This document shows, piece by piece, positions 6,757 through 43,958 of a DNA stretch of 64,000 nucleotides (within the stretch, counting starts at the first letter, position 1; each line of letters begins with the position of its first letter). Source of the stretch: Geosiphon pyriformis uo1 (lineage: Eukaryota > Fungi > Glomeromycota). Below the pieces are notes generated by a model that was not told the origin of the DNA, did not search any database, and worked only from the letters and a program-made list of their open reading frames with translations. A program made the translations under genes and the position numbers. The stretch is taken from positions 1,433,538-1,497,537 of the forward strand of contig JAAOMT010000128.1 of assembly GCA_016748015.1 (NCBI GenBank), read 5' to 3'.

Positions 6757-7728
6757 TGTTACCAGTAAAATTTTAGCTATTAATTAGCATGAAATTACTC
6801 TTATAATTCTTATTATTAATTAGCATACATTATTATTAATTCGATTATCACTTATTATTTAATCAAATTATCAAATATCATTACTCAATCAATAATCCGA
6901 TTTGTACTCTAGAAATTAAGATAATCAAATTACACAATACCCTGAACCTTTTAACATAGTCAAAATTCGCCGAAATTAATGAAAATTTGCCGAAATAATC
7001 AATAGTTCAGTGAAATAACTTGTAAATTCACCAAAATATATTTTTAGTTTACCCAAAGTATAGCAAAGAGAAAAGTGCAAGTTTAAAGACTAGTACTACA
7101 ACAAGTTGTATAAAAGAAAAGCTTTTCTCTTCAAGGAAATGTATCTTTTCATAGTACTTTACCATAGTATTTTACTTTAGATATCTTAATTGAAACAAAT
7201 CATCTTTTACAAAATCAAATAAAAATTAAATATTTAAAAACCAAATTCTTAAATTATTACACTTGAAATTTCCTCAACACAACTAACGTTTTGAAATTGA
7301 TTAGCTACCAATTTCAATAAACTGTTAGTGACTCCAGGCCTGAATAGAAAACGTTTTCCTTGATAAAATCCTATTTCTTTTACAATTTTTTTATTTTTCT
7401 TTTATTTTCTTATTACAAATTATTAGGGTAGCCTACAGACAAGATTTCTGTAGAAGAGTTGACTTTCACAGCAAAGTAACTACACATTTTAGTGAGCTTC
7501 CAGACAAGCAATTCCTGGGAAAGAGTTGATGTTTACTACAATGTAACTACATAAAGTAACTGGCAAGAAATTGGCCATTCCACTTATAAGCCCAGCAATT
7601 CAAATTATAGGAGATAATTTGAAGATAAATTCAGTTACTGGAGGTTCAACTACTTCTAGAAAACATGAATTTGCAACCAACAGACATTTACAACATTCAA
7701 AAAAAGAGACCAAAAACCTCTGGTAATA
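6757..7728 (+). repeat. Element B 5' LTR
   Basis: TGTTACCAG...TGGTAATA termini. Near-copy at 15540-16511. TATAAAA at 7109-7115. Confidence 0.93.
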
Positions 7729-7747: not shown

Positions 7748-7773
7748 AATAACACAGTAACAACAAATTCAAA

Positions 7774-9560
7774 GTGGCGACCACACCAGACACAACAACT
7801 CTAAGATATCATCAGTCAATTTACACCCACTGCAAGCAAAGATTCAACATCCCAGACGGAATTGAAGTTGTTAAGAAATTAGTATACCAATACATTGAAA
7901 ATCACATCAACAATTATCTTTTTGGAAACTACAACATTTCAGAAGTTAGAAGCAACCTCTACAATAATTTAGTGTACTATTCACAATTGGGAACAGAAAA
8001 CCTGAACAGTAAAACACTTGCTACCTACTTCCAAGAACTTAATTTTAATATTATTGAGTATTGTGAAGAAAAATACCCAGTACAGCCCAAATACTCTTTT
8101 AACTTTGAATCAAAAACAGAGACAAGCAACAAAGACAAACAAAAAGTAAAACAATACTCAAGAACCACTCCAAACACTCCAATACTACCAAAGACAACTG
8201 CCAAACACTTGTAAACACCTGAACAAGAACCCAGTATCAAATTAGCACTTTCTATTACACCATTTCCAATTTTACTTGTTCAACCACAAACACCAAGTTT
8301 ACCACTTAACTGTTTCTCCAAACCAGAAGATTTTCAGTCACTTAGAAATCCTACTCAACAACAAAAACCAATATCAACAAGTGCCAATATCATTAATTAC
8401 TTACAGAAAAACGAAAATAATCATTCAGAAAGCTTGGAAAGTGAAGAAACTAAATCAAAACCAGAAGAAATCACAAGAAACAAAGAAGAAATGGCAACTG
8501 CTTACATTGCAAAAATTCCAGAATTCACTGGTGAAGACAATAATACCAGTCTTTAAGAATGGCTTGACAAAGTTTAAAAAGCAGAAGATGCAAATGGTTG
8601 GATTGCAGCAAGAATGCTTAAAGCAATTCCCTACTTTCTCCAAGGAACAGCAGAAGAATGGTTTGAAAATTTAGAAGAACCATTTGAGAACTGGCAAGCA
8701 TTCAAAGATGCTTTCTTACAACAATTTACTGACAACAACACCTCTATTACTCTCCACAATCGCTTTTGCAATATTAAACAAGAAACATCTAAAACTGTTA
8801 TAACCTATCTTGGAAGATTCAACAAACTTCTTCAACGAATTATGAAATGACTATGGAAGAAGCAAATCACACCAAACTCATCAATCTAGCTATTGGAAAA
8901 ACCAGTTCAACAGCTGAAGAGAAAATAAACCAACTTACAAAGAAGGTTGAAAGCTACTTCACAAACCAACAACAACAGCAACAACAACCACAAAGATATC
9001 AACTCTTACAACAACACAACCAAAACAATTTTGGATCACCATCCAACAACCAACCTCAAAATTGTCATTATTGTGGAATTCCAGAACACTAGAAACGAGA
9101 TTGTAGAAAATTACAAAGAGACCAACAAAACAGAAGTAATCAATGTTACTTTTCACTACAACAATCTTATTACCAATTTCCACTACCAACCTATTATTTA
9201 CCAAGACCACAAAATTAAAACAGTTACTATTAACCAGCTTCACAACCAATGTAGCAACAATATCAGCAACCTTTACCAATTCAGTCATATCAGACACCAC
9301 CCATTTAACAATATCAAGTACCAGCAAAAAAATTGGTTCAACATAACCAATTCACACCCCAAAATCAATTTCAGAATAACAACAACAGAATCAATTTAAA
9401 TAACCAGTTGGTTCTCTGAAATTCTGGTCAACAAAGACCCAATTACTATCACACTCAACCCAGTTATCTTACAATACCAGAGAAATCGGATTTTCAACAA
9501 CCTGCACTTTCTGAAGGTAAAGTTGTAGCACCCAGATCAAACCTTTCCAACAACACTATT
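7774..9560 (+). pseudogene. gag: Element B gag (N-terminal extension, capsid-like core, CCHC knuckle, Q/P-rich tail)
   Basis: ORFs 7774-8214, 8614-8850 ('AIPYFLQGTAEEWF...FLQQF') and 8847-9092 ('CHYCGIPEH*KRDC'). Intact homologue at 28006-29049. Confidence 0.85.
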
Positions 9561-9638
9561 TCACCAGCTCAAATTGCCCAAAATGCCAACCTTTTAAATA
9601 TATTCTCATTCGAATTTGAAGCAAATGAATCACCATTT

Positions 9639-10064
9639 TTGCTTAGTAATGCAGCAGCTAATGAACAAAGAGCTATCACTGTCATGTACACTAAAGCTAC
9701 AGTAGAAGGAAAACCCATCCAACTAATTCTAGACAGTGAATTAGCTGGAAGTATTATCACCTACCAGTTAATACAACAGCTTCAAAGAACTGTTGACAGA
9801 CCAGCCCAAACTGTAATTGTTACAGCAGATGGTATGAAAAAGACACCAGTAGGAGAAATTGACAATTTTTCATTTACCATTAATGGAATCACTATTTCAG
9901 TCAAAGTTTTAGTCATAGATGCACCCCAATACCAAGCTCTGGTCGGAAATAATTGGCTTTTTAAGGCCAATACAAACTTGGACTGGGAAACTCAGGAATT
10001 AAAAATTTCATACCAAGGACAATACACCATAGTACCTGTTACTTGTGGTACTTTTAACAAATAA
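9639..10064 (+). pseudogene. Element B aspartic protease
   Basis: 'IQLILDSELAGSII' (DSG decayed by G>A) and 'ALVGNNWL' retropepsin motifs. In frame with the end of gag. Confidence 0.85.
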
Positions 10065-10239
10065 TCAGAAAAAGCCCCAGTATTTGAATTTGAAGAGGAG
10101 AAAGAAATGCCACTTACTGAAATCTACATGGCTCTTGGATCAACATCCAATTGGGCTGAAGAAACAGAACAGGAGATTTTTGAAGAATCAAGAAAATGGA
10201 AGAAAGTTAGATATTCTACACCAAAACCATAGAAACAAC

Positions 10240-10870
10240 CACCCTATATTTCACTCAAATGCAAAGATTACAACAAAAAACTTTCATTAATGTGAGCATG
10301 TATTTTTCCAGAAGAAGAATATGAAACTCATACCTGTTACTTTTGCAAAGCATGCCATAGAGAACGATTTGAATCTCCAAAAAGAAATGAAAAATAGGAC
10401 AACACACCTTGTCTTACATGTAGAGATATGTTACCAGAAGAATACAACTGGATTGATATTGCAATAAGAGAAGGAGTATGTGATCAAACCTGTTAATATG
10501 CTCTATCAATTTCGGAAAAAGTCAGAAGAGGAACACCATTTGATGCAGCATACAACAGTGCTCTCAATAAACTTTACCATTACCCTCATGATACTGAAAT
10601 GATTTTTGACTTAGCAATGACATTAATTAATAGAGCCACCCAAGAAGATGTCCACCAAATGAAAGAAGCTGAATACATTGAGTATACCATGAAATTAGCT
10701 GGAGTTGATTATAAAAATGAAGTAGAAACTTACCACCAAATTGCAAGCCACACATACCCAACTCAAGAAGCTTAAATTCAACGATTAGAGCAAATGAACA
10801 TTCAATTGTGTGAAGAATACATCATGCCTTGTGATGACAAATAGTGTCCAGAATGCTATGCTCTTAGCAT
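10240..10870 (+). pseudogene. Element B Cys/His-rich domain of unknown function between PR and dUTPase
   Basis: 'LKCKD..', 'CYFCKACH', 'PCLTC', 'VCDQTC', 'LCEE.IMPCDDK.CPEC'. Also present in E, C and A. Confidence 0.6.
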
Positions 10871-10989
10871 TCCCCTGCCAGAGAAAAATAATGAAAATGA
10901 AATTGAATTTGGAGTATCTGAACTGGTAGAAGAACTACCAACCACCCCTATCTATCTTCTTAAAAAGCAATCATCTCTATAACTTAAAT

Positions 10990-11410
10990 ATTTCGACAAC
11001 CATGGTCAAGGAATCAGACCAGAAAAAGCACACGAAATTGATGCTGGATATGACCTAAGATATCCAGGAAAAGATACTTTGGTTCTCCAACCAAAGTCCT
11101 TAACAAAAATCAATCTCAAAATTGCTTTTGAAATTTTACCTGGAGCAATGGTTCAAATTGCATCCAGATCATCATTGGCAAGCAAAGGAATCAATGTTAA
11201 AGAAGGAGTTATAAATACAGGATATACTGGAAACATTACCATCATGTTACAAAATGAAACAGACAAACTATTCAGAATTGAACATGCTGAAAAAATTGCC
11301 CAAGCAATTTACCTACTCCTAATTAACATTTCGGAGTTACAATCAGTTAAAAACAGAGAACAATTGGGAAAAAGTGAAAGAGAAACTCAAGGTTTTGGTT
11401 CAACTGAATG
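10990..11410 (+). pseudogene. dut: Element B dUTPase
   Basis: Trimeric dUTPase motifs 'DAGYDL', 'ASRSSLA', '(G)GVI(D).GYTGNI', 'KIAQAI', 'R.TQGFGST'. Confidence 0.88.
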
Positions 11411-11869
11411 ATTTACAGTTCCAGTAAACATAGTTTTTAATACACAGAATGAATCTTACCAGATTCTTCAACTTCCCCAACCAATTACCATTTCACCTTT
11501 TAGTAAACATCACGAAATTTACACTTGCTCAAAACCCACCACTACCCAACAAATCTTTAAATCCAATAAACAAATCTGTTTGAAGCATGAAATCTCAATC
11601 CCAAACGTTTATATTCTTAAAGGAATGAAAAAATTTTGAGTTACATTCTATAACCTCAATAATTACCCCATTGTCTTATTGAACAAACTAGAGATTGGAA
11701 TCATACACAGTAACATTTTTCAAGATAAAAACCCTCAAATTGTCTCTAATTTCATCGAAATTATAAGACATACACTACTTCCAAATCTAAACATCATTTC
11801 TACCACTGAAAACTACCACTTTTTGGAAGAAAAACTCTCTCGAATCAACATGGGTCTCTTGGAACCCCA

Positions 11870-13254
11870 ACAACAAAGACAATTGAAACAATTGATAGCT
11901 GAATTTGCAGATATATTTGCAAAAGACAACAATAACCTTGGAAAAATGGATATTGTTTAACACCAAATTCATACAGGAAATGCTCCACCAAAATGACAAC
12001 AAGCCTATTGAGTTCCACCTGCTAGCCACCAATTTATTAGAGAAGAGGTCCAAAAAATGCTCAATAACAGATTAATTCAATCATCAAGAAGTCTATGGGC
12101 CTCACAGTAGTTCTTGTCAAAAAAAAAAACGGAAAAATCAGATTTTGTGTTGATTATCAACAATTGAATAGTGTCACAATTGGAGATGCCTACCCTTTCC
12201 CAAGAATTGATGACATGTTAGATGCTTTAGGAAAAGCCAAGTTTTTCTCAACTTTAGACTTGGAAAGTGGATACTGACAAGTCGAAATAGACCCAAAAGA
12301 TAAACCCAAAACAGCATTTACCACCCAAAAAGGAAACTATGAGTTCAATGTTATGCCTTTTGGACTTTGCAATGCATCAGCAATATTCCAACAACTCATG
12401 GATGTTGTATATAAAAGACTCTTATGGCAATTAGTAGTTGTTTACCTTGATGACACTGATGTGTACTCACCAAGCTTTGAAGCCCATTTTATTCATCTGC
12501 GAGAAGTTTTTCAATGATTACAGAAAGCAGAATTGAAGTTGAATATTGAGAAATATTATTTTGGAAAAACAAGCTTAATTTTTCTTGGACACATAGTTAG
12601 CAAAGATGGAGTCAAACCAAACCCTAGAACAATTAGTGCTGTCAAAAACTTTCAAACTCCCAAAAATACCACAGAACTAAGAGGATTTATAGGATTAGCT
12701 CCTACTATTAGAAATTTATAAAGAGATTCTCAGAAATTGCCAAACTATTCAATTATCTTATCAACAAAAATGTGCCATACAAATGGACAGAAGAATAACA
12801 AAAAGCTTTTAAAATCCTCAAAACAAGATTGACAACAGCCCCAGTTCTTGCTTACCCAGACTTTAACAAATGGTTCCAACTAGCCACTGATGCTTCACAC
12901 ATAGCTTTTGGTGTCATCCTATTACAATTGGATAAAAATGGCCAAGAACAAGTCATTGCCTATGCTAGTAGAACACTCAAGCCAACAGAACTCAAATATG
13001 GCTCAACAAAACTAGAAGCTGCCACAGTCATTTGGGCTCTCAAACACTTTCAACAATACCTAAAGAATGGAAAAGAGTTTGACATCATAACTAACAATAT
13101 TGGCCTCAAATGGCTCAATAAAAATAAAAAAGAACAAAGTACCAAACAGTCTCAATAGAATGATTTTTTAGCAGACTACAAATATATAGTACATCACAAA
13201 CCAGGAAAACTACACACTAATATTGACAGCCTTTCAAGAATAAGACAATATTAA
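11870..13254 (+). pseudogene. Element B reverse transcriptase + RNase H, ending at TAA 13252-13254
   Basis: '[19 protein letters not shown]', 'LDLESGY', 'MPFGL', 'VYLDD' (~12445), 'FLGH'. RNase H 'TDAS', 'AYASRTL', 'N.DSLSR'. Confidence 0.92.
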
Positions 13255-13313
13255 TACCAACATTAACACCAACAAAACACCAACAAACTTAAACAGCAGA
13301 ACAAATAACAACA

Positions 13314-14697
13314 ATAGATTCAGAAAACTACAACAACATTAAAAACTATTTGGAGACTCTCACCATGCCAAAAAATTGGTCTTCAAGTGAAAAACATTAA
13401 TTACAACACCAATCCAAACAATATTTTATACACCACAACAAAATCTATTACAAAAATCGTAGAAATCCAAACCAATCACTCAGATTAGTACAAAAGAATG
13501 AAAAAGAAACAATCTTATACAACATGCACATAGATCCTTCTTCAGCACACTTGGGAAGAGATGGAACAATACAAAGAACTCTTGAACATTATTTTTGGCC
13601 TCAAATGCAAAAAGACATTCAACAATATATAGAATCTTGTGATAGTTGTCAAAGAAGAGGAGGAACTCGCCCCATAGAATCTTTAAATCCAATCAAAGTT
13701 GGACAACTTTTTAACAGAGTTGGAATTGATTTAGTCGGACCATTACCTATTACAACTCAAAAAAATTGTTATATTGCAGTCACAGTAGATTATCTTACCA
13801 AATGGCCTGAAGCTAAAGCCATCCAAAGAGTAGATACAAAATTAGTAGCAAATTTCATCTATAAAGACATTATTTGTAGACATGGATGTCCAATTAAACT
13901 TTTATCTGATCAAGGAACACATTATAAACAACTTGATACAAGAAATTTGTGAACAATTCAATGTCAAAAGACCTCTATTATCACTTTATCATTCTCAAAC
14001 AAATGGACTTGTAAAACGTTTCAACAGAACATTGTGTGAATCTCTAGCCAAAGTCTCAACAGACTTTGAGCAGGAATGAGATATCTTTATTTCATCAGTG
14101 TTATTAGCATACAAAACACTAAAACAAGATACTATGAAACACATACCATTTGATTTAACTTATGGAAGGACAGCAACATTACTAATTAATTTCACAATAG
14201 AAACATACCCTGTACAACCAATTAATGAAGAGAACTTTCAAAAAACACTCCAAAGAAGGGCCTACACTCTTCTTAGTACACTGGAAGGAAAAAGAAGAAC
14301 AGCAGCAACTCATATTGAACATTCTCAAACTCAACAAAAAGAAAGACATGACAACAAACTACCACCCATAACCAACGAATTTAAAGTTGGAAATAAAGTT
14401 CTCTTACACAGAACTAAGGCTAAAAAACAATGGAGTAGAAAATTTGAAAACAAATGGAATGGACCATTTTATATTCACAAAATTCTAGGCAATAGATCAT
14501 ACAAGTTAAGACTTGATGACAAAATACTAGCAAAAGTTGCACATGGAGATAGATTGAAACACTATCACTTCAAAAACAATTATAAATCATTAATTCCACA
14601 AATTGGTACACATTCCCCTTTAATTAAACCTGAAGATATTCCCCGAAATTTAGAACCAATAATTATAATAGAACAACAGCCAAACTTGAACACTTAA
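13314..14697 (+). pseudogene. Element B integrase (separate ORF: HHCC, DDE core, GPY/F module; no chromodomain seen)
   Basis: ORFs 13524-13952 and 14098-14697 ('KFENKWNGPFYIHKILGNRSYKL'). Start codon decayed to ATA at 13314; it is ATG in E. Confidence 0.88.
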
Positions 14698-14851: not shown

Positions 14852-15559
14852 ATGATTATTCCCCAAAATATTCAACAAATATCCCAAAAATTAATGTTAG
14901 CTTTGAAAACACTTCCTGACTTATCCATAATGATTAATGGAAGTCAAATTAATTACATTTAAAAAGAAACCACAGCCCCAATAGTAAATAATTCTTAAAA
15001 CTACCACCCCTATAGAAGAAAAACAAAAGATCATTCTGAAAAAAGGTTACCAGAACTTTTGAAGCAAGCACTGAAAAAAAACTTTTAAATTGCCCCTATT
15101 GACATTCCACCAAATGCCACAATTCAACAGAAACTTTTACTATGTCTTAATGAACAGAACAATGAACATACTCTTATATATAGATATTTTCATATTGGGA
15201 AAACACTTTACGAACAAAAACTGGAACTTGAAGCAACCAACATCACTCCTAAGACTATACAAAAACAAATTCGCAATGAATTTAAGACAGCAGCTGTATT
15301 AACAAACACTTGCTACAAACTTAGAGCAGCTTTTAGACTTTATAATTTATTTACCACTTGTGAAAACATCTTACAAAATTCAATACTCCAATCAATGAAA
15401 GTTCAATACATTGGAAAACTCACAAAACTGAAATTTCAACAATTTTCAGACCAAATCACTTCAATTATCTTGGACCACTATTTTAACATCACAGATAGTG
15501 CTTGGACTTTGACAGAGCTTAGTCTTAAGGAGGAGATTATGTTACTAGTAGAATTTTAG
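14852..15559 (+). pseudogene. Element B ORF3 (accessory), overlaps PPT and ends inside the 3' LTR
   Basis: ATG at 14852 'MIIPQNIQQISQKLMLAL...IYRYFHIGKTL...KLRAAFRLYNLF...QYIGKLTKLKFQQF...LTELSLKEEIMLLVEF*'. Homologous to 29190+ and 36258-36665. Confidence 0.75.
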
Positions 15560-16511
15560 CTATTAATTAGCATGAAATTATCTTTATAATTCCTATTATT
15601 AATTAGCATACATTATTATTAATTCAATTATCACTTATTATTTAATCAAATTATCAAATATCATTACTCAATCAATAATCCGATTTGTACTTTAGAAATT
15701 AAGATAATCAAATTACACAATACTCTGAATCTTTTAACATAATCAAAATTCGCTGAAATTAATAAAAATTTGCTGAAATAATCAATAGTTCAGTGAAATA
15801 ACTTGTAAATTCACCGAAATGTATCTTTAGTTCACTCAAAGTGTAACAAAGAGAAAAGTGCAAGTTCAAAGACTAGTACTACAACAAGTTGTATAAAAGA
15901 AGAGCTTCTCTCTTCAAGGAAATGTATCTTTTTATAGTATCTTACTATAATATCTTACTTTACATATCTTAATTGAAACAAATCATCTTTTACAAAATCA
16001 AATAAAAATTAAATATTTAAAAACCAAATTCTTAAATTATTACACTTGAAATTTCCTTAACACAACTAACGTTTTGAAATTGATTAGCTACCAATTTCAA
16101 TAAACTGTTAATGACTCCAGGCCTGGATAGAAAACGTTTCCCTTGATAAAATCCTATTTCTTTTACATTTCTTTTATTTTTCTTTTATTTTCTTATTACA
16201 AATCATTAGGGTAGCCTACAGACAAGATTCTTGTAGAAGAGTTGACTTTCACAGCAAAGTAATTACACATTTTAGTGAGCTTCCAGATGAGTAATTCCTG
16301 GGAAAGAGTTAACGTTTACTACAACATAACTACATAAAGTAACTGGCAAAAAATTGGCCATTCCACTTATAAGCCCAGCAGTTCAAATTATAGGAGATAA
16401 TTTGAAGATAAATTCAGTTACTGGAGGTTCAACTACTTCTAGAAAATGTAAATTTGCAACCAACAGACATTTACAACATTTAAAAAAAGAGACCAAAAAT
16501 CTCTGGTAACA
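15540..16511 (+). repeat. Element B 3' LTR (PPT AAGGAGGAGATTA at 15527-15539)
   Basis: Direct repeat of 6757-7728, ending TGGTAACA. Confidence 0.93.
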
Positions 16512-18943: not shown

Positions 18944-20223
18944 ATCAAGACCAGAGATGCAATGCCAATCAAACAATAAGCATACAGAGTACCACCAGCC
19001 AGCCATGAAATCATTTATCAAGAAATCAACTGGATGCTTAACAATGGGTTAATTCAACTATTAATAAGTCCATGATTATTACCAGTAGTACTGGTCCATA
19101 AAAAGAATGGAAAAATCCATTTTTGTGTGGACTACTGAAAACTGAATGAAGTAACTAAAGGTGATAGCTATCCAACACCAAAGATCCAAGAATTATTCGA
19201 TGCTTTCAGCAGAAAAAAATGGTTCTTAACATTAGATTTAGACAGTAGTTACTAACAAGTAGCCATGAAGCCAGAAGATAAGGAGAAAACAGCTTTCACA
19301 ACACAAGAAAAAAATTTTGAATTTGAAGTTATGCCATTTGGCTTGATGAATATACCAGTAACATTCCAATGGCTTATGGAAATTGTCTATACTGGACTAC
19401 TGTGAAAATCAGTAGTTGTTTACTTAGACAACACCAATGTGTTCTCAAAAACATTTGATGATTATCTATATCATTTTCAACAAATGTTTAAAAGACTAAG
19501 AAGAGCCAGATTAAAGCTAAATACAACTAAATGTTTCTTTGGCAAAACTAAACTTAAGTTTTTGGGGCATGTTGTAAGCAAAAATAGAATCAAAATGGAT
19601 CTGGACAAGATTGAAATTGTTAAGAACTTTTCAGTACCAAATAATCTTACAGAATTGAGAGCATTCTTGGAATTTGCTGGATACTACTGCTGCTTCATTA
19701 AAGACTTTTCCAAAATAGTTCAACCACTACACCAGCTCCAAACAAAAAACACCAAATATGAATGGACAGAAATCCAACAAGAAGCTTTTAATACATTAAG
19801 AAGAAAGCTTATTCAAGCCCCAGTACTAATCTATTCGGATTATAATAAGCCATTCATAATTACAATTGATGCATCTGGTCAAGCATTGGGAACAGTACTA
19901 TCACAAAAAAGACCAGATAGAAGAGAACATCCAATAGCTTACACCAGTAGAAGCTTAAGTCCAGCGGAAAAGAACTATGGAACTTCAGTACTGGAACACT
20001 TAGCTATTTATTGGGCCGTTATCAAATGGAAAGAATACTTGAGTCAGAAGTTTGATGTATACACTGATTACAAAGGATTGACTTCAATTCAGAAGCAAAA
20101 ATTTGGAGATAATTGCCATACCAGATGGAAAATAAAACTTTTACCATTTAATTATACAGTACATTATAAAAAAAAAAAAACAATGAAAATGTTGACGGAT
20201 TGTTGCAAATGAGACAAATCTAA
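18944..20223 (+). pseudogene. Element C RT + RNase H, ending at TAA 20221-20223
   Basis: 'FCVDY', 'MPFGL', 'VYLDN' and ORF 19439-20212 ('FLGHVV', 'IDAS', 'YTDYKGL'). Confidence 0.9.
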
Positions 20224-20253
20224 AAACATTTCAACCCAAAAATATAACAAAAG

Positions 20254-21638
20254 ATAAATATACAAAAATACCAACAACTCTAACATTATATAAATACTCA
20301 ATTGTTTAAGGAGAAATTATCTCAACAAGAACAAAAAAGCATAAAACAACAATCAAAATATTTTATCAACCATCAAAATATATTTTACCAGAAGAACAGA
20401 AGAAATCCAGATCAACCAATCAAAGTAATCACTGAACCAGAGAAAGAAACAATACTATTTAACATGCATTTAGATCCAACAGCAAGACATTTTCATAAAA
20501 AAGCAACCATAGAAAGAACCAGAAAAAAATACTATTGGCCATTAATGTATCCAGACATTATTTAATATGTTCAAAGTTGTGATGCTTGTTAAAGAAAAGA
20601 TAGAACAAAACCCAGTGAACCATTAAGACCAATCAAAGTAGGACAACCATTCAACCATATTAAAATTGACTTAGTAGAACCATTGACAATCACCAGTAAA
20701 GGCAACAGATATATTGCAGTAGCCATGGACTATCTCACTAAATGGCCAGAAACAAAAGCCATTCAAAGAGCAGATGCAGAATCCATTGCCAAATTCATTC
20801 ATCAAAATTTGATTTGTTGATATGGATGTTCAAAAGAACTACTATCAGATCAAGAAACCCACTTTGTGAACAGAACATTGACAGAATTAAGTCAAAGATT
20901 TGGAATTAAAAGACCATTATCATCACCATACCATCCACAAATGAATGGATTAGTTGAAAGATTTAATAGAACACTGTGTGAAGCAATAGCCAAAATTAGC
21001 CAAAAAAACCAGAATAAATGGAATTTGTTTATACCATCAGTATTATTTGCTTATTAGACAATGAAGTAAGATACTACACAAGCAACACCATTTGAATTGG
21101 TATATGGTAGAACAGCAACATTACCAGTTGAGATAGAATTCAAAACATATCCAACAAAACCAATAACAGAAGATAATTTCTAAGAAACATTGTTGAAAAG
21201 AACATATGACTTAATAAAAACACTAGAAAACAGATAACAAAAAACAGCTGATAACATCCAAAAGTCACAAGAAAAGCAAAAAAACGACACAATAACCAAC
21301 TACCAGATAAACCAGTTGAATTCAAAATTGAAGACAAAGTACTATTACATTATACCAAAGCAGAAAAACAATGGAGTGGAAAATTTGACTCCAAATGGGA
21401 TGGACCATTTCACATAGAAGAAATTCTAGGAAATAGAGCTTATAAATTAAGATGGGACAATAAAATTTTAATCAAAGCAGCACATAGTGATCAACTGAAA
21501 CCATATCACCAGATAGCATCATCATCATCTACCAATAACATTCCACAACTGGGAGTACAAAAAATACTAGTTCAACCAGATGAAATTCCATGAGATTTGG
21601 AACCAATCATAGTTATTAAACCAAACACGTCAAATTGA
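20254..21638 (+). pseudogene. Element C integrase (separate ORF)
   Basis: ORFs 20302-20565 and 20866-21057 ('SPYHPQMNGLVERFNRTL'), plus 'KWDGPFHI'. Confidence 0.88.
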
Positions 21639-21671: not shown

Positions 21672-22345
21672 ATGACAAAAACAACCAAGAAAAATAGAAA
21701 TACCAGATTATATTCACACTATAGCTCAACAATTGTTCCAAACCTTAAGTTAACAACAGTTAGACATGGAAATTGTTATTAACAACCAAATAATTTACTA
21801 TTAAAACACCCAAAAAAAAACAAAAAATACACCATATTAGTGGCCACCAAAGAATGATAAAAACTAAACAGATAACTTAATAGAAAAAGTGAAAAACATT
21901 TTTGGAAAAATACCTATTATGATACTAACAGAAAAGCTTACAAAAAAAAATTGGAAGCAATGGACAAAACGACTTCCAATATCATACTGCTACTATCAGT
22001 TAAGTCAAAAGTTGAATATTCAGGAGTTGTATATCAATAAATCCAAGAAAATATTCAATCAAGACATAATACAACAAATTGAAAAATTTATTGGAAAGAA
22101 AATGAATTCAACACTACATGTTAAAACAATGTACCAACTATACAACATATTTCAGAACTATCCAGAAATACTGTTACACTTAGACATGGAAACCATAACC
22201 ATTAACCAATAGAGAAAAATGAACAATACACAAGTAGAAAACATGAGAAACAGAGTCGAACAAACAATACTTGAAAAAAAAGTATTAGAATTAATTCAAA
22301 CCAAAGATTTTGATAAAGCTTAATATTAAAGAAGAAGATAATATT
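21672..22345 (+). pseudogene. Element C ORF3
   Basis: 'IPDYIHTIAQQLFQTL...MEIVINNQIIYY' and ORF 21889-22212 'YCYYQLSQKL...MYQLYNIFQNYPEILL...ITINQ'. Confidence 0.7.
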
Positions 22346-23196
22346 ACTCATAAAAGAAGAAAAACAGATATAGAAAAATAGTAGACCAATAAGAAAGTAG
22401 TAGTTAGCATATGAGCACATTGCTCAGCAATGTGGAGCAATGTCAGAAATTATGGCACATTGCTCAGCAATATGGAGCAATGTCAAGAAAATATGACATA
22501 TTGCTCAGTAATATGAACATTGCTTAAGAAATTATAGCACATTGCTTGGAAATATAAGTGATCTTGTAAAACCCAAATTATGTATATATAGTGGTAGCAT
22601 TAGAAGTAAAAAAGACAAACCTCTCAGTTTAGATTTTATTTAAGCCACTTTTTAATCCACAAATATCAATAAATAATTATTTTCTATCTCAAATCCATTC
22701 TTTACTATTAATACTTTATGTTGATAGTTATTGACACTTAACTACACTAGAACAATAGCTCTTGATTATGGCTATTGATGGAATACTAACTTGTGCATTG
22801 CCTTGGCTCATTTTTTTATTTCTTTTTATTTTTCTTTTCTTTGATTTTATTATTGCATACTAATTGATTAAGGATTAAAGCACTGAGTTATTGATGTTAT
22901 AGACAGTCTGGTAAAAGACCCAGAAATAAGGGTAGAATTATATATATATTAACAGATAGTTTACCAGAAGTGCACGACTGCCAGAATAAACCAGCCACCA
23001 TGCTAAAGACAGAAATTGGGAAAACAACTTACCAACCAACTATATTATTATTAAATCTCTGTCCATTATACAAAAGACTCAACTCTAAAACCTTTAGATA
23101 CACCTCCATACCAGTATTACCAGCATTATTAAGATATTGAGCACTAAGTTACAGATTTGATATTTGATTTAAGACCTCAAATAAACATCTGTAACA
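22342..23196 (+). repeat. Element C 3' LTR
   Basis: T(G>A)TTACTCA...CTGTAACA after a purine tract. The 3' two-thirds is homologous to the A/G LTRs; U3 differs. Confidence 0.88.
22413..22552 (+). promoter_or_regulatory. U3 array of CACATTGCT/AGCAATGT motifs, incl. palindrome CACATTGCT-C-AGCAATGTG (22416-22434)
   Basis: Seen directly. Lies between CCAAT (22386) and TATATATA (~22583). Function inferred. Confidence 0.55.
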
Positions 23197-24092: not shown

Positions 24093-25071
24093 TGTTACCA
24101 GAGGTTTTTGGTCTCTTCTTAGCTCTTGTATGTTTGTTGTAATGCTGTTAATTCATGACTATGGGAAGTGTTTGAACCTCTGATAACTGAATTTTATCTT
24201 CAAATTATCTTCTATAATTTGAACTGCTGGGCTTATAAGTGGAATGGCCAATTTCATGCCAGTTGCTTCATATAGTTACATTGTAGTAAACATTAACTCT
24301 TTCCCAGAAATTGCTCATCTGGAAGCTTACTAAAAATGTGTAGTTACTTTGCTGTGAAAGTCAACTCTTCTACAGGAATCTTGTCTGTAGGCTACCCTAA
24401 TGATTATAATAAGAAAATAAAAGAAAAAAAATAAAAGAAATGTAAAAGAAATAGAATTCTGTCAAGGAAAACGTTTTCTATTCAGGCCTGGAGTCACTAA
24501 CAGTTTACTGAAATTGGTAGCTAATCAATTTTAAAACATTAGTTGGATTTTGGGGATTTTTCAAGTGCAATAATTAAAGAATTTGGTTTTTTGAATTATT
24601 TGATATTTATTTCTTTTTGTGTGTGTAGAAATAGTTCTAAGTAATAAATCTAAGTAAGATATATTTTCTTGAAGAGAGAAGCTCTTTTTTTATACAACTT
24701 ATTATAACACTATTCTATAAACTTGAACTTTGTTTTTTTCTACAATTTCACTAAATTAAAGATACATTTTAGCAAACTACAAGTTATTTCTGTGAACTAT
24801 TAGATATTTTGGTGAACTGTCAATTATTTTGGCAAATTTTTACAAATTTCAGCAAACTTTTGAATGTTACATATTTTGGGATATTGCATGATTAATTATC
24901 GCATTTAGATTACATTTGTGTTATGTACAAATTGGATTATTAATTAAATGATAATTTCGGACATTTTGCTAATGTAATAGGTAATAATTTGAAACGATAA
25001 TATATGCTAATTAATGATAGGAATAAAGATAATTTCATGCTAAATAATATCTCTAATTTTGTCTGGTAACA
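24093..25071 (-). repeat. Solo LTR, family 2 (E-like subfamily)
   Basis: Homologous to the E LTRs. Perfect TSD GTGG (24089-24092 / 25072-25075). Confidence 0.92.
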
Positions 25072-26240: not shown

Positions 26241-26449
26241 TGTTACCAGTAGAATTTTAGCTATTAATTAGCATGAAATTTCCTTTATAATTCCTATCAT
26301 TAATTAGCATATATTATTATCGTTTCGAATTTCACTTATTATTTAATCAAATTAGCAATTATCATCATTTAATCAATAACCCGATTTGGACCATAGAAAT
26401 TGAGATGATCAATTTACACAATACCCTGAACCATATAACATAGCCAAAA

Positions 26450-26539
26450 TTCGCCGAAATTAATGAAAATTGGCCGAAATAATTCATAGTTCAGCGAAAT
26501 AACTTGTAGTTCGCCGAAATGTATCTTTAGTTCACCGAA
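26450..26539 (+). promoter_or_regulatory. U3 phased array of TTCGCCGAAAT motifs, 20-21 bp period
   Basis: Motifs start at 26450, 26470, 26490, 26510 and 26531. Decayed copies at 6966-7057, 15749-15840, 24807-24858, 35846-35956 and 44609-44720. Confidence 0.6.
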
Positions 26540-27312
26540 NNNNNNNNNNNNNNNNNNNNNNNNNNNNNNNNNNNNNNNNNNNNNNNNNNNNNNNNNNNNN
26601 NNNNNNNNNNNNNNNNNNNNNNNNNNNNNNNNNNNNNNNNNNNNNNNNNNNNNNNNNNNNNNNNNNNNNNNNNNNNNNNNNNNNNNNNNNNNNNNNNNNN
26701 NNNNNNNNNNNNNNNNNNNNNNNNNNNNNNNNNNNNNNNNNNNNNNNNNNNNNNNNNNNNNNNNNNNNNNNNNNNNNNNNNNNNNNNNNNNNTCTCAAAT
26801 AAAAATTAAATATTCGAAAACCAAATCCTTTGATTATTACACTTGAAATTCTCTCAACACAACTAACATTTTGAAATTGATTAGCTACCAATTTCAGTAA
26901 TCTGTTAGTGACTCCAGGCCTGGATAGAAAACGTTTCCTTGACAAAATTCTATTTCTTTACGTTTCTTTTATTTTTCTCTTTCTTTTCTTATCATAATCA
27001 TTTGGGTAGCCTACAGACGAGATTCCTGTAGAAGAGTTGACTTTCACAGCAAAGTAACTACACATTTTTTTAGTGAGCTTCCAGATGAGCAATTCCTGGG
27101 AAAGAGTTGACGTTTACTACAACGTAACTACATAAAGTAACTGGCACGGAATTGGCCATTCCACTTATAAGCCCAGCGGTTCAAATTATAGGAGATAATT
27201 TGAAGATAAATTCAGTTACTGGAGGTTCAACTACTTCCTGAAAACGTGAATTTACAGCAAATCAACATTACCAACATTTAAGAAAAGAGACCAAAAAACC
27301 TCCGGTAACATT

Positions 27313-27330
27313 TGGTGCTCTCCCACGGAA
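27313..27330 (+). other. Intact 18-nt primer binding site TGGTGCTCTCCCACGGAA
   Basis: 2 nt after the LTR end. The reverse complement has the layout of a tRNA 3' end (T-stem CCGTG, acceptor GGAGAGC, A, CCA). Confidence 0.82.
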
Positions 27331-27355
27331 ACAACACAGCAACAACAACTTCAAA

Positions 27356-29049
27356 GTGGCGTCTGCTTCAGACATAACAACTCTAGAGTACTACCAGTCA
27401 ATTTACACTCACTGCAAGCAAAGATTCAACATCCAAGACGGAATTGAGGCATTTAAGAAATCATTATACCAATACATCGAAAACCGATTCAACAACTACC
27501 TACTTGGAGACTACAACATTACTGAAGTCAAAAGCAACCTCTACAACAACTTACTACACTATTCTCGTCTAAATACTGAGGAGCTCAACAGTGAAACAAT
27601 TGCCACCTACTTTCAAGAACTTGANNNNNNNNNNNNNNNNNNNNNNNNNNNNNNNNNNNNNNNNNNNNNNNNNNNNNNNNNNNNNNNNNNNNNNNNNNNN
27701 NNNNNNNNNNNNNNNNNNNNNNNNNNNNNNNNNNNNNNNNNNNNNNNNNNNNNNNNNNNNNNNNNNNNNNNNNNNNNNNNNNNNNNNNNNNNNNNNNNNN
27801 NNNNNNNNNNNNNNNNNNNNNNNNNNNNNNNNNNNNNNNNNNNNNNNNNNNNNNNNNNNNNNNNNNNNNNNNNNNNNNNNNNNNNNNNNNNNNNNNNNNN
27901 NNNNNNNNNNNNNNNNNNNNNNNNNNNNNNNNNNNNNNNNNNNNNNNNNNNNNNNNNNNNNNNNNNNNNNNNNNNNNNNNNNNNNNNNNNGAATGGTTCG
28001 AAAATTTGGAAGGACCATTTGAAAACTGGCAAGCATTCAAAGATGCTTTTCTTCAACAGTTCACCGACAACAACACCTCTATCACACTCCGAAACCGATT
28101 CCGAAACATCAAGCAAGATCCATCAGAATCAGTCATGACCTACCTTGGAAAGTTCAACAAACTACTCAGAAGAATTCGCCAATTGGAAACCGATGAATAT
28201 TACTCCAACGCTCAGATTTTGGATCAATTTATTGCTGGACTAAAGGACAAACTGATCAAGAAAGTTCGCCCACACAACCCAGAAGATTTAGCTACTGCCA
28301 TTCGCCATGCGAAAAATTATGAAATGGCTATGGAAGAAGCTAACCGCACAAAGCTTGTTAACCTTGCCATTGGTGAAACCAGCTCAGCAGCTGAAGAGAA
28401 AATTGACCAGCTTACCAAGAAAGTTGAAAACTACTTCACCAATCAACAACAACCGCAGCAACAACCGCAAAGATATCAACCACCCCAACGACGGAACCAA
28501 GGAAACTTCTCATCAGCACCCATTGGTCAACCCCAGAATTGCCACTATTGTGGAATTCCAGGACATTGGAAACGAGATTGTAGGAAGTTGCAAAGAGACC
28601 AGCAGCAAAGGAATAATCAACGTCATTCCCAACCACAACAATCATACTATCAATTTCCACCACCACCAGCTTATCATTCACCAAGACCACAGTACCAGAA
28701 CAACTATTATCAACCCGCTCCCCAACTAATGCAACAGCCATACCAACAACCTCCACCAATTGCACAATATCAACAACCACCTCCAGTTCAACAATACCAA
28801 GTACCTGCTAGGAGAATCACTCAACAAAATCAATTCACACCACAAAATCGTTTTCAAAACAACAACAACAGAACTAGCTCCAACAATCAATTGGTACCCA
28901 GAAATCCGATTCAACAGAGACATAATCATTACCAAACACAACCAAGTTACTTAACAATGCCAGAGGAACAGAATTTTCAACAAACTGCACTTTTTGAAGG
29001 TGAAGTTGCAGCACCAAGACAAAACCCTTCTACCAACAACCAAACTTGA
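27356..29049 (+). CDS. gag: Element D Gag, no stops in the sequenced parts (spans an N gap)
   Basis: ORFs 27356+ and 28006-29049: retrotransposon capsid-like 'IKQDPSESVMTYLGKF...QFIAGL', knuckle 'CHYCGIPGHWKRDC', Q/P-rich tail. Confidence 0.85.
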
Positions 29050-29189
29050 ACACTTAATTTAGCATATTATAACCCCTTTAATAATACAGAAAAAAATAGT
29101 AAATAAATTCAAAAGAAAACCCAAAACCAAAAACAAATAAAAACCCTATACCCAAAAATAATTTCTTTATTCTTTTAGTCATTTTTATC

Positions 29190-29587
29190 ATGATTATCCC
29201 CCGAAATATTCAACAAATATCCCAAAAATTAATGTTAGCCTTGAGAACACTTCCTGACTTATCCATAACAATTAATGGAAGTCAAATTAATTACATTCAA
29301 AAAGAAACCCCAGCCCCAGCAGTCAACAATTCTCAGAATTATCACCCTTATAGAAGAAAAGCTAGAAGTCAGTCTGGAAAACAATTACCAGAACTTGTAG
29401 AGCAAGCGCTAAAAGAAAACCTCTTATTTGCCCCTATTGACATTTCACCAAATGCCACAATCCAACAAAAACTTCTACTACTGCTTAATGAACAAAACAA
29501 TGAACATACCCTTATTTATAGATACTTTCATATTGGAAAAACACTTTATGAACGAAAACTGGAACTTGAAGCAACAAACCTCACTCC
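29190..29587 (+). CDS. Element D ORF3, open until the N gap
   Basis: 'MIIPRNIQQISQKLMLALRTLPDL...IYRYFHIGKTLYERKLELEA', 132 codons with no stop. Confidence 0.8.
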
Positions 29588-30535
29588 NNNNNNNNNNNNN
29601 NNNNNNNNNNNNNNNNNNNNNNNNNNNNNNNNNNNNNNNNNNNNNNNNNNNNNNNNNNNNNNNNNNNNNNNNNNNNNNNNNNNNNNNNNNNNNNNNNNNN
29701 NNNNNNNNNNNNNNNNNNNNNNNNNNNNNNNNNNNNNNNNNNNNNNNNNNNNNNNNNNNNNNNNNNNNNNNNNNNNNNNNNNNNNNNNNNNNNNNNNNNN
29801 NNNNNNNNNNNNNNNNNNNNNNNNNNNNNNNNNNNNNNNNNNNNNNNNNNNNNNNNNNNNNNNNNNNNNNNNNNNNNNNNNNNNNNNNNNNNNNNNNNNN
29901 NNNNNNNNNNNNNNNNNNNNNNNNNNNNNNNNNNNNNNNNNNNNNNNNNNNNNNNNNNNNNNNNNNNNNNNNNNNNNNNNNNNNNNNNNNNNNNNNNNNN
30001 NNNNNNNNNNNNNNNNNNNNNNNNNNNNNNNNNNNNNNNNNNNNNNNNNNNNNNNNNNNNNNNNNNNNNNNNNNNNNNNNNNNNNNNNNNNNNNNNNNNN
30101 NNNNNNNNNNNNNNNNNNNNNNNNNNNNNNNNNCTTTTATTTTTCTCTTTCTTTTCTTATCATAATCATTTGGGTAGCCTACAGACGAGATTCCTGTAGA
30201 AGAGTTGACTTTCACAGCAAAGTAACTACACATTTTTTAGTGAGCTTCCAGACGAGCAATTCCTGGGAAAGAGTTGACGTTTACTACAACGTAACTACAT
30301 AAAGTAACTGGCACGGAATTGGCCATTCCACTTATAAGCCCAGCGGTTCAAATTATAGGAGATAATTTGAAGATAAATTCAGTTACTGGAGGTTCAACCA
30401 CATCCAGAAAACGTGAATTCACAGCAAACAAGCATCAACAACATTTAAGAAAAGAGACCAAAAAAACCTCCGGTAACAATGGGTTGTTTTTGATTATTCT
30501 TATTTCTTCTGATAACACTTCTTTGATTTTGGTAA

Positions 30536-35206: not shown

Positions 35207-36172
35207 TGTTATCAAAGGTTTTTGGTCTCTTCTTAGCTCTTGTATGTTTGTTGTAATGCTGTTAATTCACGATTATGGGAAGTGTTTAAACTTCTGATAA
35301 CTGAATTTATCTTCAAATTATCTTCTATAATTTGAACTGCTAAACTTATAAGTGGAATGGCCAATTCTGTGCCAGTTACTTTGTATCGTTACATTGTAGT
35401 AAACATCAACTCTTTCCCAGGAATTGCTCGTCTGGAAGCTCACTAAAAATGTGTAGTTACTTTGCTGTGAAAGTCAACTCTTCTACAGGAATCTCATCTG
35501 TAGACTATCCTAATAATTGTAATAAGAAAATAAAAGAAATGTAAAAGAAATAGAATTTTATCAAGAGAAACGTTTTCTATCCAGGCCTGGAGTCACTAAC
35601 AGTTTACTGAAATTGGTAGCTAATCAATTTCAAAACATTAGTTGGGTTTTGGGGATTTTTCAAGTACAATAATTAAAGAATTTGGTTTTTTGAATTATTT
35701 GATATTTTTTTTTTTGTGTGTATAGGAATGGTTCTAAGTAATAAATCTAAAGTAAGATACATTTTTTCAAAAAGAAAAGCTCTTCTTTTATACAACTTGT
35801 TGTAACACTATTCTATGAACTTGAACTTTGCTCTTTTTTACAATTTCACTGAACTAAAGATACATTTTGGTGAACTACACGTTATTTCTGCAAACTATTA
35901 GATATTTCGGTGAACTATCAATTATTTCAGCAAATTTCTACAAATTTCAGTGAACTTTTGAATGTTACATATTTCGGGGTATTGCATGATTGATCATTGC
36001 ACTTAGGTTACATTTGTTTTATGTACAAATTGGGTTATTAATTAAATGATAATTTTGAACATTTTTCTAATGTAATAAGTGATAATTTGAAATGATAATA
36101 TATGCTAATTAATGATAAGATTTATAAGGGTAATTTCATGCTAAACAATATCTCTAATTTTGTCTGGTAACA
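35207..36172 (-). repeat. Element E 3' LTR
   Basis: Direct repeat of 43959-44937. Confidence 0.92.
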
Positions 36173-36860
36173 TAATCTCCTCCTCAAAACTGAGCTCCAT
36201 TGAAGTCCACATACTGTCTGTAATTTTCAAATAATAATCCAAAATTATTGAAGAAATTTAGTCTGAAAATTGTTGAAATTTTAGTTTTGTGAGCTTTCCA
36301 ATGTATTGAATCTTCAAAGGCTGTAAAATTGGGTTTTGTAGGACGTTTTCACAGATGTAGAATAGGTCATAAAGTCTAAGAGCAGCTTTTAGTTTATAAC
36401 GACTGTTTGTAGGTCCAGTTGTTGTCTTGAATTTATTGTGGAGTTGTTTCCAAATAGCTTCTTTTGTGAGGTTTGCTGCTATAAGCTCCCGTTTTCGTTC
36501 ATGAAGTGTTTTTCCAATGTAGAAATATCTATATATTGGAGTATAGTCATAGTTTTCTTCATTAAGACACAGTTGAAGTTTTTGTTGAATAGTAGCATTC
36601 GGTGGAATACTAATAGAAGTGAGCATTAAGTTTTCTCTTAAAGCAAGTTTTAAAAGTTTTGGCAAGTGAATTCCAGAATAACTTCTTGTGTTCTTCTTAT
36701 ATGAATGGTATTTTCGTGAATTTGGGGCTAAATTTGTGACTACTTCTGTTTAAGTATAATTAATGTGGTTTTTAGTAACAGTAATAGATAATTCAAGTAT
36801 TATTTTTAAAGCTAACATTAGTTTTTGGGATAATTGTTGAATGTTTTGAGGAATAGTCAT
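36173..36860 (-). pseudogene. Element E ORF3
   Basis: ATG at 36860 'MTIPQNIQQLSQKLMLAL', plus ORF 36258-36665. Confidence 0.78.
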
Positions 36861-36982
36861 TATAAGAGATTTGAAAATAAAAGAAAATTATTTTTGGTGT
36901 ATGAGTTTTTATGTTATTTTTGTTTTGTTTTTGTGAGATTGTTTCTAAATTATAATGATATAACTATAATGATAAATTTAAA

Positions 36983-38371
36983 TTAAGTGTTCAAGTTGGG
37001 AGATTGTTCAATGACAACTATTGGTTCTAATTTTCGGAGAATATTTTCGGAATTGATTAAAAGGGAATGTGTACCAATTTGTGGAATTAATGGTTCAGGA
37101 TTGTTTCTGGAATTATAGTGTTTTAAACAATCTCCATATGCAACTTTTGTTAGGATTTTGTCATCAAGTCTTAGCTTGTATGATCCGTTGCCTAGGACTT
37201 TATGGATAAAGAATGGTCCATCTCATTTATTTTCAAATTTTCCACTCCATTGTTTTTTAGCTTTAGTTCTGTGTAAGAGAACTTTGTTTCCGATTTTAAA
37301 TTCATTGGTAACTGGAGGCAATTTGTCATCATGCTGTTCTTTTTGTTAAGCTTGGGAGTGTTTAATATGAGTGGCTGCTATTCATTATTTTTCTTCCAAC
37401 ATGCTAAACAGAGTTTAGACTCTTTGTTGTAGTGTTTCCTGGAAATTGTTTTTATTAATTGGTTGTGTTGGGTATGTTTTCACAGTAAAACTAATTGGTA
37501 ATGTTGCTGTCCTTCCATAAGTTAAATCAAATAGTGTGTGTTTTGTGATATCTTGTTTTAGTGTTCTATATGCCAGTAACACTGATGAAATAAAGAGATT
37601 CCATTCTTGCTTAAAATCAGTTAAGACTTTGGCTAATGATTCACACAATGTCCTGTTGAAACGTTCTACAAGTCCATTTGTTTGTGGATGGTAGAGCAAA
37701 GATAATGGTCTCTTAACATTAAATCGTCCACAAATTTCCTGGATTAAATTGTTCATGAAATGTGTTCTTTGATTAAATAAAAGTTCTATTGAACATTTAT
37801 ATCTACAAATGATGTCTTCATAGATGAAGTTTGCTACTGATTTCGTATTTGCTCGTTAAATGGCTCTGGCTTCAGGCCATTTGGTGAAATAGTCTACAGC
37901 TATTGCAATATAATGGTTTCCTTGGTTTGTGATAGGGAGTGGTCTGACTAAATTGATACCAACTCGGTCAAATGGCTGTCCAACTTTGATTGGGTTTAAA
38001 GGTTCTGTAGGGCAAGTTCCTTTTCTTCTTTGACAACTATCACAAAACTTAACATATTCATGAATGTCTTTTCTCATTTGAGGCCAAAAATAATATGCTA
38101 GTGTTCTTTGGGTGGTACTGTCTTTTTTTAGGTGTGCTGATAAAAAGTCTGAATGCATGTTATATAAAATAGTTTTTTTTTCATGTTCTTGTATTAATCT
38201 GAATGGATTGTCTGGGTTTCTGAAGTTTTGATAATAAATAATGTTATTGTGTAAGAAGTATTGTTTGGCTTGTTGTTGTAACCAATGTTTTTTATCTGGG
38301 GACCAATCTGTTGGGATTGTTAATGTCTCCAGATATTGTTTTTTAAGATTGTTGTAGTTTTCAGAGTTCAT
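36983..38371 (-). pseudogene. Element E integrase (own ATG at 38371)
   Basis: ORFs 37856-38371 (HHCC, 'PFDRVGI.LV') and 37415-37756. Confidence 0.9.
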
Positions 38372-38417
38372 TGGTTGTTGTTTTGTTGTTAATTCAAATG
38401 GGTGTTGTTTTTATGTT

Positions 38418-41118: not shown

Positions 41119-41499
41119 ACAAGGGGTGTTATCCCATTTTCTACTTCTTTTTATTAAATGGCCCTATTGTTTTCTGTGGCAAGCCTTGCAGTAATAACAA
41201 GTATGATTTTCATATTCTTCTTCAAATGAAATGCAGGCTCCCATTGAGGAGAGTTTCTTGTGGCAGTCCTTGCATTTGAGTAAAATGTAGGGGCGTTGTT
41301 TTTGTGGTTCTGGTTTTGAATAGGAGACATTCTATCTGGTTGTCACTGGTTCTTTTGTTTCAAGAGAATCATTTGTTGAAAAGTACTGTTGTTCAGTTTC
41401 ATCGGCCCAATTGGAGGTTAATCCAAGTGCCATAAATGTTTCAATGATGGGCTTTTCTTCTTCCAGTTCGAATTCAAAAGCCGGGGCTTTTTTGGAGCG

Positions 41500-41900: not shown

Positions 41901-41949
41901 TGGCGGCCACATTGCTAAGCAGGAATGGTGACTTATTTGCTTCAAACTT

Positions 41950-43914: not shown

Positions 43915-43958
43915 TTTGAAGTTGTTTTGCTGTGTTGTTTCTGTGGGAGAGCACCAAA

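Follow-up and report, generated by a model that had tools for sequence, protein, structure and literature searches.

Retrotransposons with long terminal repeats (LTRs) in a 64,000-nt stretch of Geosiphon pyriformis uo1 DNA (contig JAAOMT010000128.1, forward-strand positions 1,433,538 to 1,497,537; hereafter the window) encode integrase (IN) in an open reading frame (ORF) of its own, downstream of a gag-pol frame that ends after the RNase H (RH) domain; this separate IN ORF is ancestral and not a product of decay. That the layout is real, ancestral and widespread in the lineage we hold to be practically certain. Decayed LTR retrotransposons of two LTR families lie nested in the AT-rich window: family 1 (LTRs of 970 bp) comprises the full-length elements B and E, one solo LTR and a deleted copy, D, and family 2 includes C, G and one older fragmented copy. 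Pfam and tblastn traced a domain series of capsid, zinc knuckle, protease, dUTPase, reverse transcriptase (RT), RH, H2C2, DDE core, SH3-like region and a third gene (ORF3). The features at the RH/IN junctions are:

7760..13254, plus strand: gag-pol frame of B with capsid, protease, dUTPase, RT and RH; decayed, start not fixed; ends DSLSRIRQY-TAA, stop at 13252-13254 (Pfam, tblastn, junction translation)
13255..13313, plus strand: spacer of B, 59 nt, non-coding, A/C-rich, unstructured, without ATG (extraction, folding)
13314..14697, plus strand: IN gene of B with YPYY-type N terminus, H2C2, DDE and SH3/GPF region; ATA start at 13314, internal stops, one frameshift (Pfam, tblastn)
20221..20253, plus strand: C (family 2), pol stop of MRQI-TAA at 20221-20223 and 30-nt spacer with a second in-frame TAA at 20245-20247 (translation)
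20254..21638, plus strand: IN gene of C, ATA start at 20254 (tblastn, other copies)
38372..38420, minus strand: E, pol stop of DCLSRIRQD-TAG at 38420-38418 and 46-nt spacer (translation)
36983..38371, minus strand: IN gene of E, own ATG at 38371; 462 codons in one frame, internal stops
63740..63772, minus strand: G (family 2), pol stop of MRQV-TAA at 63772-63770 and 30-nt spacer with a second TAA at 63748-63746 (translation)
62498..63739, minus strand: IN gene of G, aligned part, ATA start at 63739 (Pfam, tblastn)

Three-frame translation and extraction of the four junctions returned the pol stops, spacer lengths and start codons exactly as given in a preliminary description of this DNA; the 'D.LSR' motif that it placed before the pol stop is present in B and E and has decayed to DGLLQ in C. 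That description had also counted four independent copies: the four junctions are real, but only two independent families stand behind them, since the spacers of C and G are identical at 28 of 30 positions. The spacers of B and E, which had been called unalignable, align no better than shuffled sequences (404 of 2,000 score as high), and their coding flanks are 78-82% identical (0 of 2,000). All four spacers are 58-63% A, contain one or two G and hold neither ATG nor GT; folding of the B, E and C junctions gave about 0 kcal/mol. The alignment of the B integrase reaches residue 1 of the standalone Rhizophagus IN P0007, and the catalytic IN residues are intact in C and P0007 and decayed in E and G. 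Both families have an in-frame ATG, possibly opening a short upstream ORF, four codons ahead of their pol stop (13240-13242 and 20209-20211, in family 2 in both C and G); at 13242 it is present in 62% of the depth of B-type copies.

Decay by substitution in the window was nearly all by transition (55 of 58 differences between the LTRs of B, 42 of 43 substitutions between those of E), with a CpG observed/expected ratio of 0.17. Because the copies are riddled with such changes, many stops among them, the window alone could not exclude that the pol stops arose by CAA>TAA decay in dead copies and that the split is an artefact. Other copies were examined as contigs of one DNA run (X1, possibly the source sample), thousands of related pieces with depth summed over contigs; runs X2 and X3 gave almost no cover. 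At the C junction, where 3,047 contigs were placed and the 35 differences that reach 8% are listed in full, neither TAA (20221-20223 and 20245-20247) varies at this level, while an internal stop of C at 20281, a positive control for decay, reads CAA in 74% of the depth. The preliminary description had taken the ATA start for a decayed ATG, and for C this is borne out: 20254-20256 reads ATG in 455,352 of 634,021 depth (72%). At the B junction 3,890 contigs were placed; among the 40 of 115 differences listed there is no variant of the pol stop at 13252 and no ATA>ATG at 13316, and the start codon of B thus rests on E and the relatives. The internal IN stop of B at 13398 is contradicted by the majority letters of the other copies (53% and 69%). 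Over the B spacer the depth falls and the other copies have unrelated ends, loose at 13307/13310; 75% of the covering depth carries a 1-nt deletion at 13291. With the family-2 stops fixed where the decay control reverts, and with the open yet split loci and the standalone proteins described below, an origin of the split by decay is practically excluded.

A metagenome scan returned at least 598 related stretches, of which at least 548 were confirmed, and the best 80 loci were kept. The 5' end of IN is missing from 14 of these, an ATG from one and a recognisable RH end from 27, leaving 38 loci with both ends; RH and IN are split in all 38. In 18 of them pol is open over at least 400 aa and IN over at least 395 aa, and none is a young copy reading through from RH into IN, the counter-case that the preliminary description had named. 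Pfam detected no IN domain in the nine long pol ORFs inspected among these 18 loci and their neighbours. Stop and start overlap in 15 of the 38 loci (-14 in two, -11 in four, -10 in one, -8 in three, -4 in three and -1 in two), in forms that include TAATG and ATGA, and in the remaining 23 a spacer of 24-827 nt intervenes, the upper extreme coming from a broken copy; no spacer measures 0-23 nt. Termination-reinitiation systems have stop and start within about 20-30 nt of each other; besides the overlaps, four spacers of the relatives measure 24-30 nt, and the window spacers 30, 30, 46 and 59 nt. The IN frame relative to pol takes all three values (13/11/14 loci), nine of the 13 in-frame loci contain two or more stops and four a single stop, and between the near-identical loci L039 and L042 the spacer length changes by 1 nt. 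The gag-pol junction also varies in the lineage, being a single ORF, an in-frame stop or overlapping frames (L029:3292/3293, L054:3360/3361, L048:3132-3147).

Protein databases gave a concordant picture. With the IN of E as query, 863 proteins passed a length window that admitted RH-IN proteins but not full Pol fusions, and the best 120 were examined: 91 begin at the same Met or no more than two residues from it, 24 begin farther downstream and five carry 5-16 extra residues. None of these 120 contains an RH motif, and none of these standalone matches a chromodomain. The invariance of Met1 in alignment A1 reflects the choice of rows only, and the unbiased count is the 91 of 120. In the reciprocal RT-RH search (best 120 of 7,783 examined), IN is absent from 92 of the 98 matches with at least 54% identity, some of which may be cut by contig ends, and in 81 of 86 proteins with a locatable motif the protein ends 1-30 residues past the RH motif. 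Six matches do bear IN: two group with animal-type elements, and four are Rhizophagus clarus gene models. As the latter join RT to IN at differing points and drop the conserved RH D-x-x-S-R, the joins look like prediction artefacts; gene predictors appear to invent introns over the RH/IN junction. A search for longer proteins (best 120 of 838) returned mostly more distant fused elements, and viral contigs searched with two IN queries gave no relative. The split is not universal, however, which counts against its generality: P0126 and P0127 are true in-frame RH-IN continuations among split elements, and the fused pair P0132 and P0139 are sisters of the split locus L069.

The unfused state clusters strongly in the RT-RH tree (6 changes against 25.6 in shuffled trees, 0 of 500; 76 rows picked from 247), and a FastTree RT-RH clade of 122 rows, 120 of them unfused or gene-model rows, holds the tested window copies B, C and E. 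These trees consist of database matches, few of them named reference elements. A single origin of the split is compatible with the data (approximately unbiased test, p-AU 0.595, for a group named after the trees were seen); L079 falls outside and the rooting is uncertain.

A separate IN would require another route for its expression and packaging. Judging from the junction sequences, we lean towards translation of IN from the same RNA by ribosome reinitiation after the pol stop. Gag-pol translation would end just past RH, and after termination a 40S subunit would be retained on the RNA and take the nearest AUG in good context, either one that overlaps the stop or one past a short, AUG-poor and unstructured spacer of the window type; ORF3 would be reached by the same restart. 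On a weaker footing, IN made in cis on genomic RNA may be taken into the particle through contact with that RNA or with Gag, as foamy virus Pol and hepadnavirus polymerase are, rather than within Pol, and a hairpin that precedes the AUG in one subclade could be a cis signal for restart or IN loading.

Junction statistics were computed after five near-duplicate loci had been dropped. ATG is avoided in spacers of 20-100 nt (4 seen against 12.3 expected, P=0.003; 15 spacers), whereas the last 120 nt of pol sequence before the IN ATG show no such avoidance of codon pairs that yield ATG (49/63 versus 347/458, P=0.88), and in the overlap class ATG-forming codons are likewise retained within 60 nt upstream (16/17). 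A purine at -3 is enriched at the IN ATG (50/60 versus 202/319 internal ATGs, P=0.003). This pattern would be expected of ribosomes that start searching at the pol stop or enter in the spacer, and not of ribosomes that scan from a distant 5' end. The IN/ORF3 junction is similarly coupled in four loci (-8, -4, -1 and +2). Stop/start overlaps such as UAAUG and AUGA are the documented form of reinitiation after long ORFs, with examples in fungal viruses and SART1 (PMC10275272).

Several observations weigh against reinitiation. The window spacers (30-59 nt) lie at or past the point, about 30 nt, beyond which reinitiation of the termination upstream ribosomal binding site (TURBS) type weakens (PMC10275272), ATGs occur within the 156-461-nt spacers of some relatives, and only 14 of 22 spacer loci have the IN ATG as the first ATG past the stop. 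The TURBS motif is complementary to 18S rRNA; a TURBS-like TGGGA occurs in only one of 15 overlap loci and one of 23 spacer loci. The TURBS motif is not required in all of the fungal examples covered by the accessible part of PMC10275272. Finally, a good Kozak context and ATG-poor spacers suit a short subgenomic leader equally well. Expression of IN, with ORF3, from its own subgenomic mRNA, made from an internal promoter near the RH end or by splicing from the 5' LTR, is a tenable though doubtful alternative; in foamy viruses Pol has an RNA of its own. Beyond the -3 purine and the ATG-poor spacers, it would account for the fall in total ATG density over the last 100 nt, from about 1.3 per 50 nt to 0.71 and 0.44, and for the tolerance of spacers as long as 461 nt. 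No conserved acceptor accompanies these features, however (7 of 23 spacers have a YAG in their final 25 nt, and E, C and G have none), the stop/start overlap in 15 of the 38 loci is left unexplained, and the unavoided ATG-forming codons upstream in the overlap class would oblige the subgenomic 5' end to sit no more than a few dozen bases from the AUG.

Internal ribosome entry through the A-rich spacer or the subclade hairpin, independent of pol translation, we consider improbable. A-rich ribosome entry sites exist in yeast, the window spacers are about 60% A and unstructured, and the hairpin, which covaries in 18 of 80 loci, mostly ends about 10 nt or less from the IN AUG; against this, neither the window junctions nor the other 62 loci have the hairpin, it could equally serve packaging or protein binding, and the overlap class has no spacer that could hold an entry site. 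Continued production of a Pol-IN fusion by programmed frameshifting, stop readthrough or a junction intron is very improbable. The B-type spacer with its common 1-nt deletion (58 nt) and the E spacer (46 nt) both place IN in the +1 frame, family 2 lies in frame 0, as do the four loci with a single stop, and some NCBI gene models join RT to IN. A fusion mechanism would nevertheless have to cope with the use of all three frames, with two or more stops in 9 of 13 frame-0 loci, with the two fixed stops of family 2 and with the 1-nt difference between L039 and L042; the window spacers lack a GT donor, the joined Rhizophagus clarus models are inconsistent and delete RH residues, and a conserved Met1 would be unneeded. 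Stop/start coupled translation, the preferred reading, is described for caliciviruses, influenza B, HvV190S, CHV1 and the non-LTR element SART1 (PMC10275272), and the TAATG/ATGA overlaps recur in the relatives; the elements differ from these systems in the rarity of TGGGA in the overlap class and in the 30-59-nt spacers of the window, and no LTR-retrotransposon integrase is among the examples of coupling given in the accessible part of that source.

The hairpin belongs to a motif, about 40 nt long, that precedes the IN AUG in 18 of the 80 loci (for example L017:1134-1187 and L011:5186-5239), 17 of which built the model; it mostly ends within about 10 nt of the AUG and lies farther away in L014 and L077. 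Over the 17 aligned rows, 95% of cells pair and seven of 13 named pairs change on both sides, giving a covariation score that no shuffled or slid control reached, although related sequences may inflate it. RNAalifold folds the motif into a hairpin with a conserved 12-nt 5' bulge, in which eight of 12 pairs are compensatory; a small second stem of the initial structure was replaced, as RNAalifold pairs columns 23-44 (one compensatory change). Rfam gave no match for the 17 loci, only one unrelated hit at E 2.7, and the motif was found neither in the window junctions nor in viral contigs; two pattern matches in prokaryotic genomes (15-21 bits against 50-73, stems broken) were taken as chance. The hairpin is a candidate new cis-acting RNA. 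Where the contigs of this subclade reach, an extra Cys/His-rich domain follows RH: a tail of 240-315 residues (L011:4345-5163, L014, L015, L017, L037) with an acidic stretch and an invariant C-x3-CD-x2-N-x-H-x-H-x2-C-x2-C, likely to bind metal. The tail has no PDB sequence match better than E 0.5 and no family was found for it; its structure model (predicted local distance difference test, pLDDT, 40) is useless.

The elements had been called tricistronic, and besides gag-pol and IN they do carry a conserved ORF3 of no known family. Downstream of IN, 27 loci have an ORF of about 110-270 residues; about 21 of these align as one family with a YxLG...R.Y.LF core, and the model of one relative is all-helical (pLDDT 94). 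Pfam gave nothing better than E 0.01 in 21 members, and Foldseek no match in the PDB or viral libraries; the best VIA Z was 4.6, which is uninformative. A role of ORF3 in restart or packaging is a guess. In several of the loci L020, L024, L029, L030, L041 and L071 a polypurine tract and an LTR-like start come close behind IN and no ORF3 is listed, so that one subgroup may lack the third gene.

The window elements share with Ty3/gypsy elements (Metaviridae) direct LTRs with TG...CA ends, a primer-binding-site (PBS)-like site whose primer tRNA was not assigned, a polypurine tract, a short target duplication, the order gag-protease-RT-RH-IN, a Ty3-type capsid, RT_RNaseH and an integrase with H2C2, DDE and GPF/Y. 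Canonical members (Ty3, DGLT-A and fungal chromoviruses) are described with IN within the pol polyprotein (PMC3248453, PMC5911963), in contrast to the separate ORF found here, and since IN is not within Pol we file the elements as a variant rather than a canonical member. They further differ in a dUTPase in pol, in the third gene and in lacking a chromodomain match: none was found by Pfam on the window INs, which gave only a sub-cut-off SH3_Tf2-1-like match in B and C. The window INs have in common with YPYY-type integrases (Athila/Tat, Cer1, Gypsy-1-I_RO and DGLT-A1) an N-terminal motif ahead of H2C2; in those elements IN remains joined to RH, and no separate IN ORF is described for them in the accessible part of PMC2836005. 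Lokiretroviruses, Odin and Troyka were considered as precedents and rejected, all three encoding IN in Pol according to the accessible parts of their descriptions. Full-text searches found no account of an integrase in an ORF of its own in any LTR retrotransposon, although Repbase, GyDB and most subscription journals, which lay outside the search, may contain annotated examples. In Gmr1-like elements IN lies upstream of RT; here it stays downstream of RT-RH, and the layout is therefore not of Gmr1 type.

A phylogeny of IN against Ginger and Gmr1-type integrases had also been proposed; beyond the mismatch with Gmr1, a link to Ginger is compatible with the trees. In a tree of 57 hand-picked rows the split INs, 12 Ginger1-like rows and six plant-type fused rows, probably Athila/Tat-like to judge by motifs and hosts, lie together in a polytomy to one side of a 100/99 branch; the Ginger1-like rows group as a separate clade (99/99) with the window INs outside it, and capture of IN from Ginger1 is compatible as well (p-AU 0.77). 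The split INs resemble Ginger1 in being free-standing YPYY-type integrase genes with YPYY before the zinc finger (compared by eye with PMC2836005), and the OTU/Ulp1-bearing P0128, P0451 and P0492 start at the same profile column. In contrast to Ginger1, which has terminal inverted repeats, no RT and a C-terminal OTU or Ulp1, the window elements have LTRs and RT and lack OTU/Ulp1. Target duplications of the four family-1 insertions are 4 bp long and of NTGG form (CTGG/TTGA, ATGG, GTGG and ATGG; chance 0.029 each), that of B being imperfect (TTGA/CTGG, LTR flanks 6753-6756 and 16512-16515); the right flank of C is CCAT. We infer that the NTGG duplications were NCGG before CpG decay. Ginger1 prefers CCGG and CCGT/ACGG targets (PMC2836005), and the duplications would be suggestive of a link between this lineage and Ginger1. 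The route from an LTR retrotransposon to Ginger1 was called unclear by Bao et al. 2010 (PMC2836005, accessible part). We regard as unlikely, though worth stating, a scheme in which a polycistronic LTR element, translating IN in cis and loading it through the bulged-hairpin RNA signal, with a free-standing NCGG-targeting IN, was the intermediate to Ginger1; the lineage offers a concrete route for that step.

In LTR retroelements the accepted rule is that the element's protease frees integrase from Pol, which is also how integrase gets to the particle, so a widespread lineage that breaks the rule must express and package it differently; its natural variants (overlaps, short spacers and a structured hairpin) make both steps directly testable. 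New here are the covarying hairpin before the IN AUG in 18 relatives and the 4-bp NTGG duplications resembling Ginger1. Free-standing 'integrase' proteins in mycorrhizal fungi may, moreover, have been miscounted as Ginger transposons or host genes. The nearest named protein match of the window elements is from Geosiphon pyriformis (80% identity across one third of the query), and other named matches are from Rhizophagus, Cetraspora and Entrophospora; they point to a Glomeromycotina fungus as the likely host. Standalone IN entries exist for Rhizophagus irregularis. The remaining features of the window are:

6757-16511, plus strand: element B, family 1, full-length (LTR comparison)
6757..7728, plus strand: 5' LTR of B, TGTTACCAG...CTGGTAATA, then PBS-like TTTGGTACTCTC (94% match to the 3' LTR of B)
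14852..15559, plus strand: ORF3 of B, helical, no family assigned; 3' end overlaps the polypurine tract and LTR start (alignment to relatives)
15540..16511, plus strand: 3' LTR of B (LTR comparison)
21672..23196, plus strand: ORF3 region and 3' LTR of C, LTR from about 22343; boundaries partly by eye
24093..25071, minus strand: solo LTR, family 1, target duplication GTGG
26241..30478, plus strand: element D, family 1, internal deletion, without RT, RH or IN junction; assembly gaps; target duplication ATGG
35207..44937, minus strand: element E, family 1, full-length, LTRs 44937-43959 and 36172-35207; target duplication ATGG
36150..36860, minus strand: ORF3 of E, starts with ATG; end approximate

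Element C is truncated at its 5' end. The older family-2 copy (4169-45180, minus strand) is apparently interrupted by one element after another (E, D, the solo LTR, C and B), and the RH/IN junction is absent from it. In both families a dUTPase lies between protease and RT (10983-11411, 17645-18943, 39538-41163 and 25236-25790; also in L063 and L079), and some relatives have a NUDIX domain in pol in its place (P0258, P0267, P0268 and P0332); a Cys/His-rich insert at 10200-10900 separates protease from dUTPase, and its counterpart in E gave no Pfam match. Outside both LTR families, diverged repeats with 65-70% identity pair 2369-4043 with 54140-55828 and 45255-48604 with 55960-58512, their ORFs without useful Pfam match, and the family-2 LTR region contains a 41-nt tandem repeat in 3.4 copies at 22409-22546.

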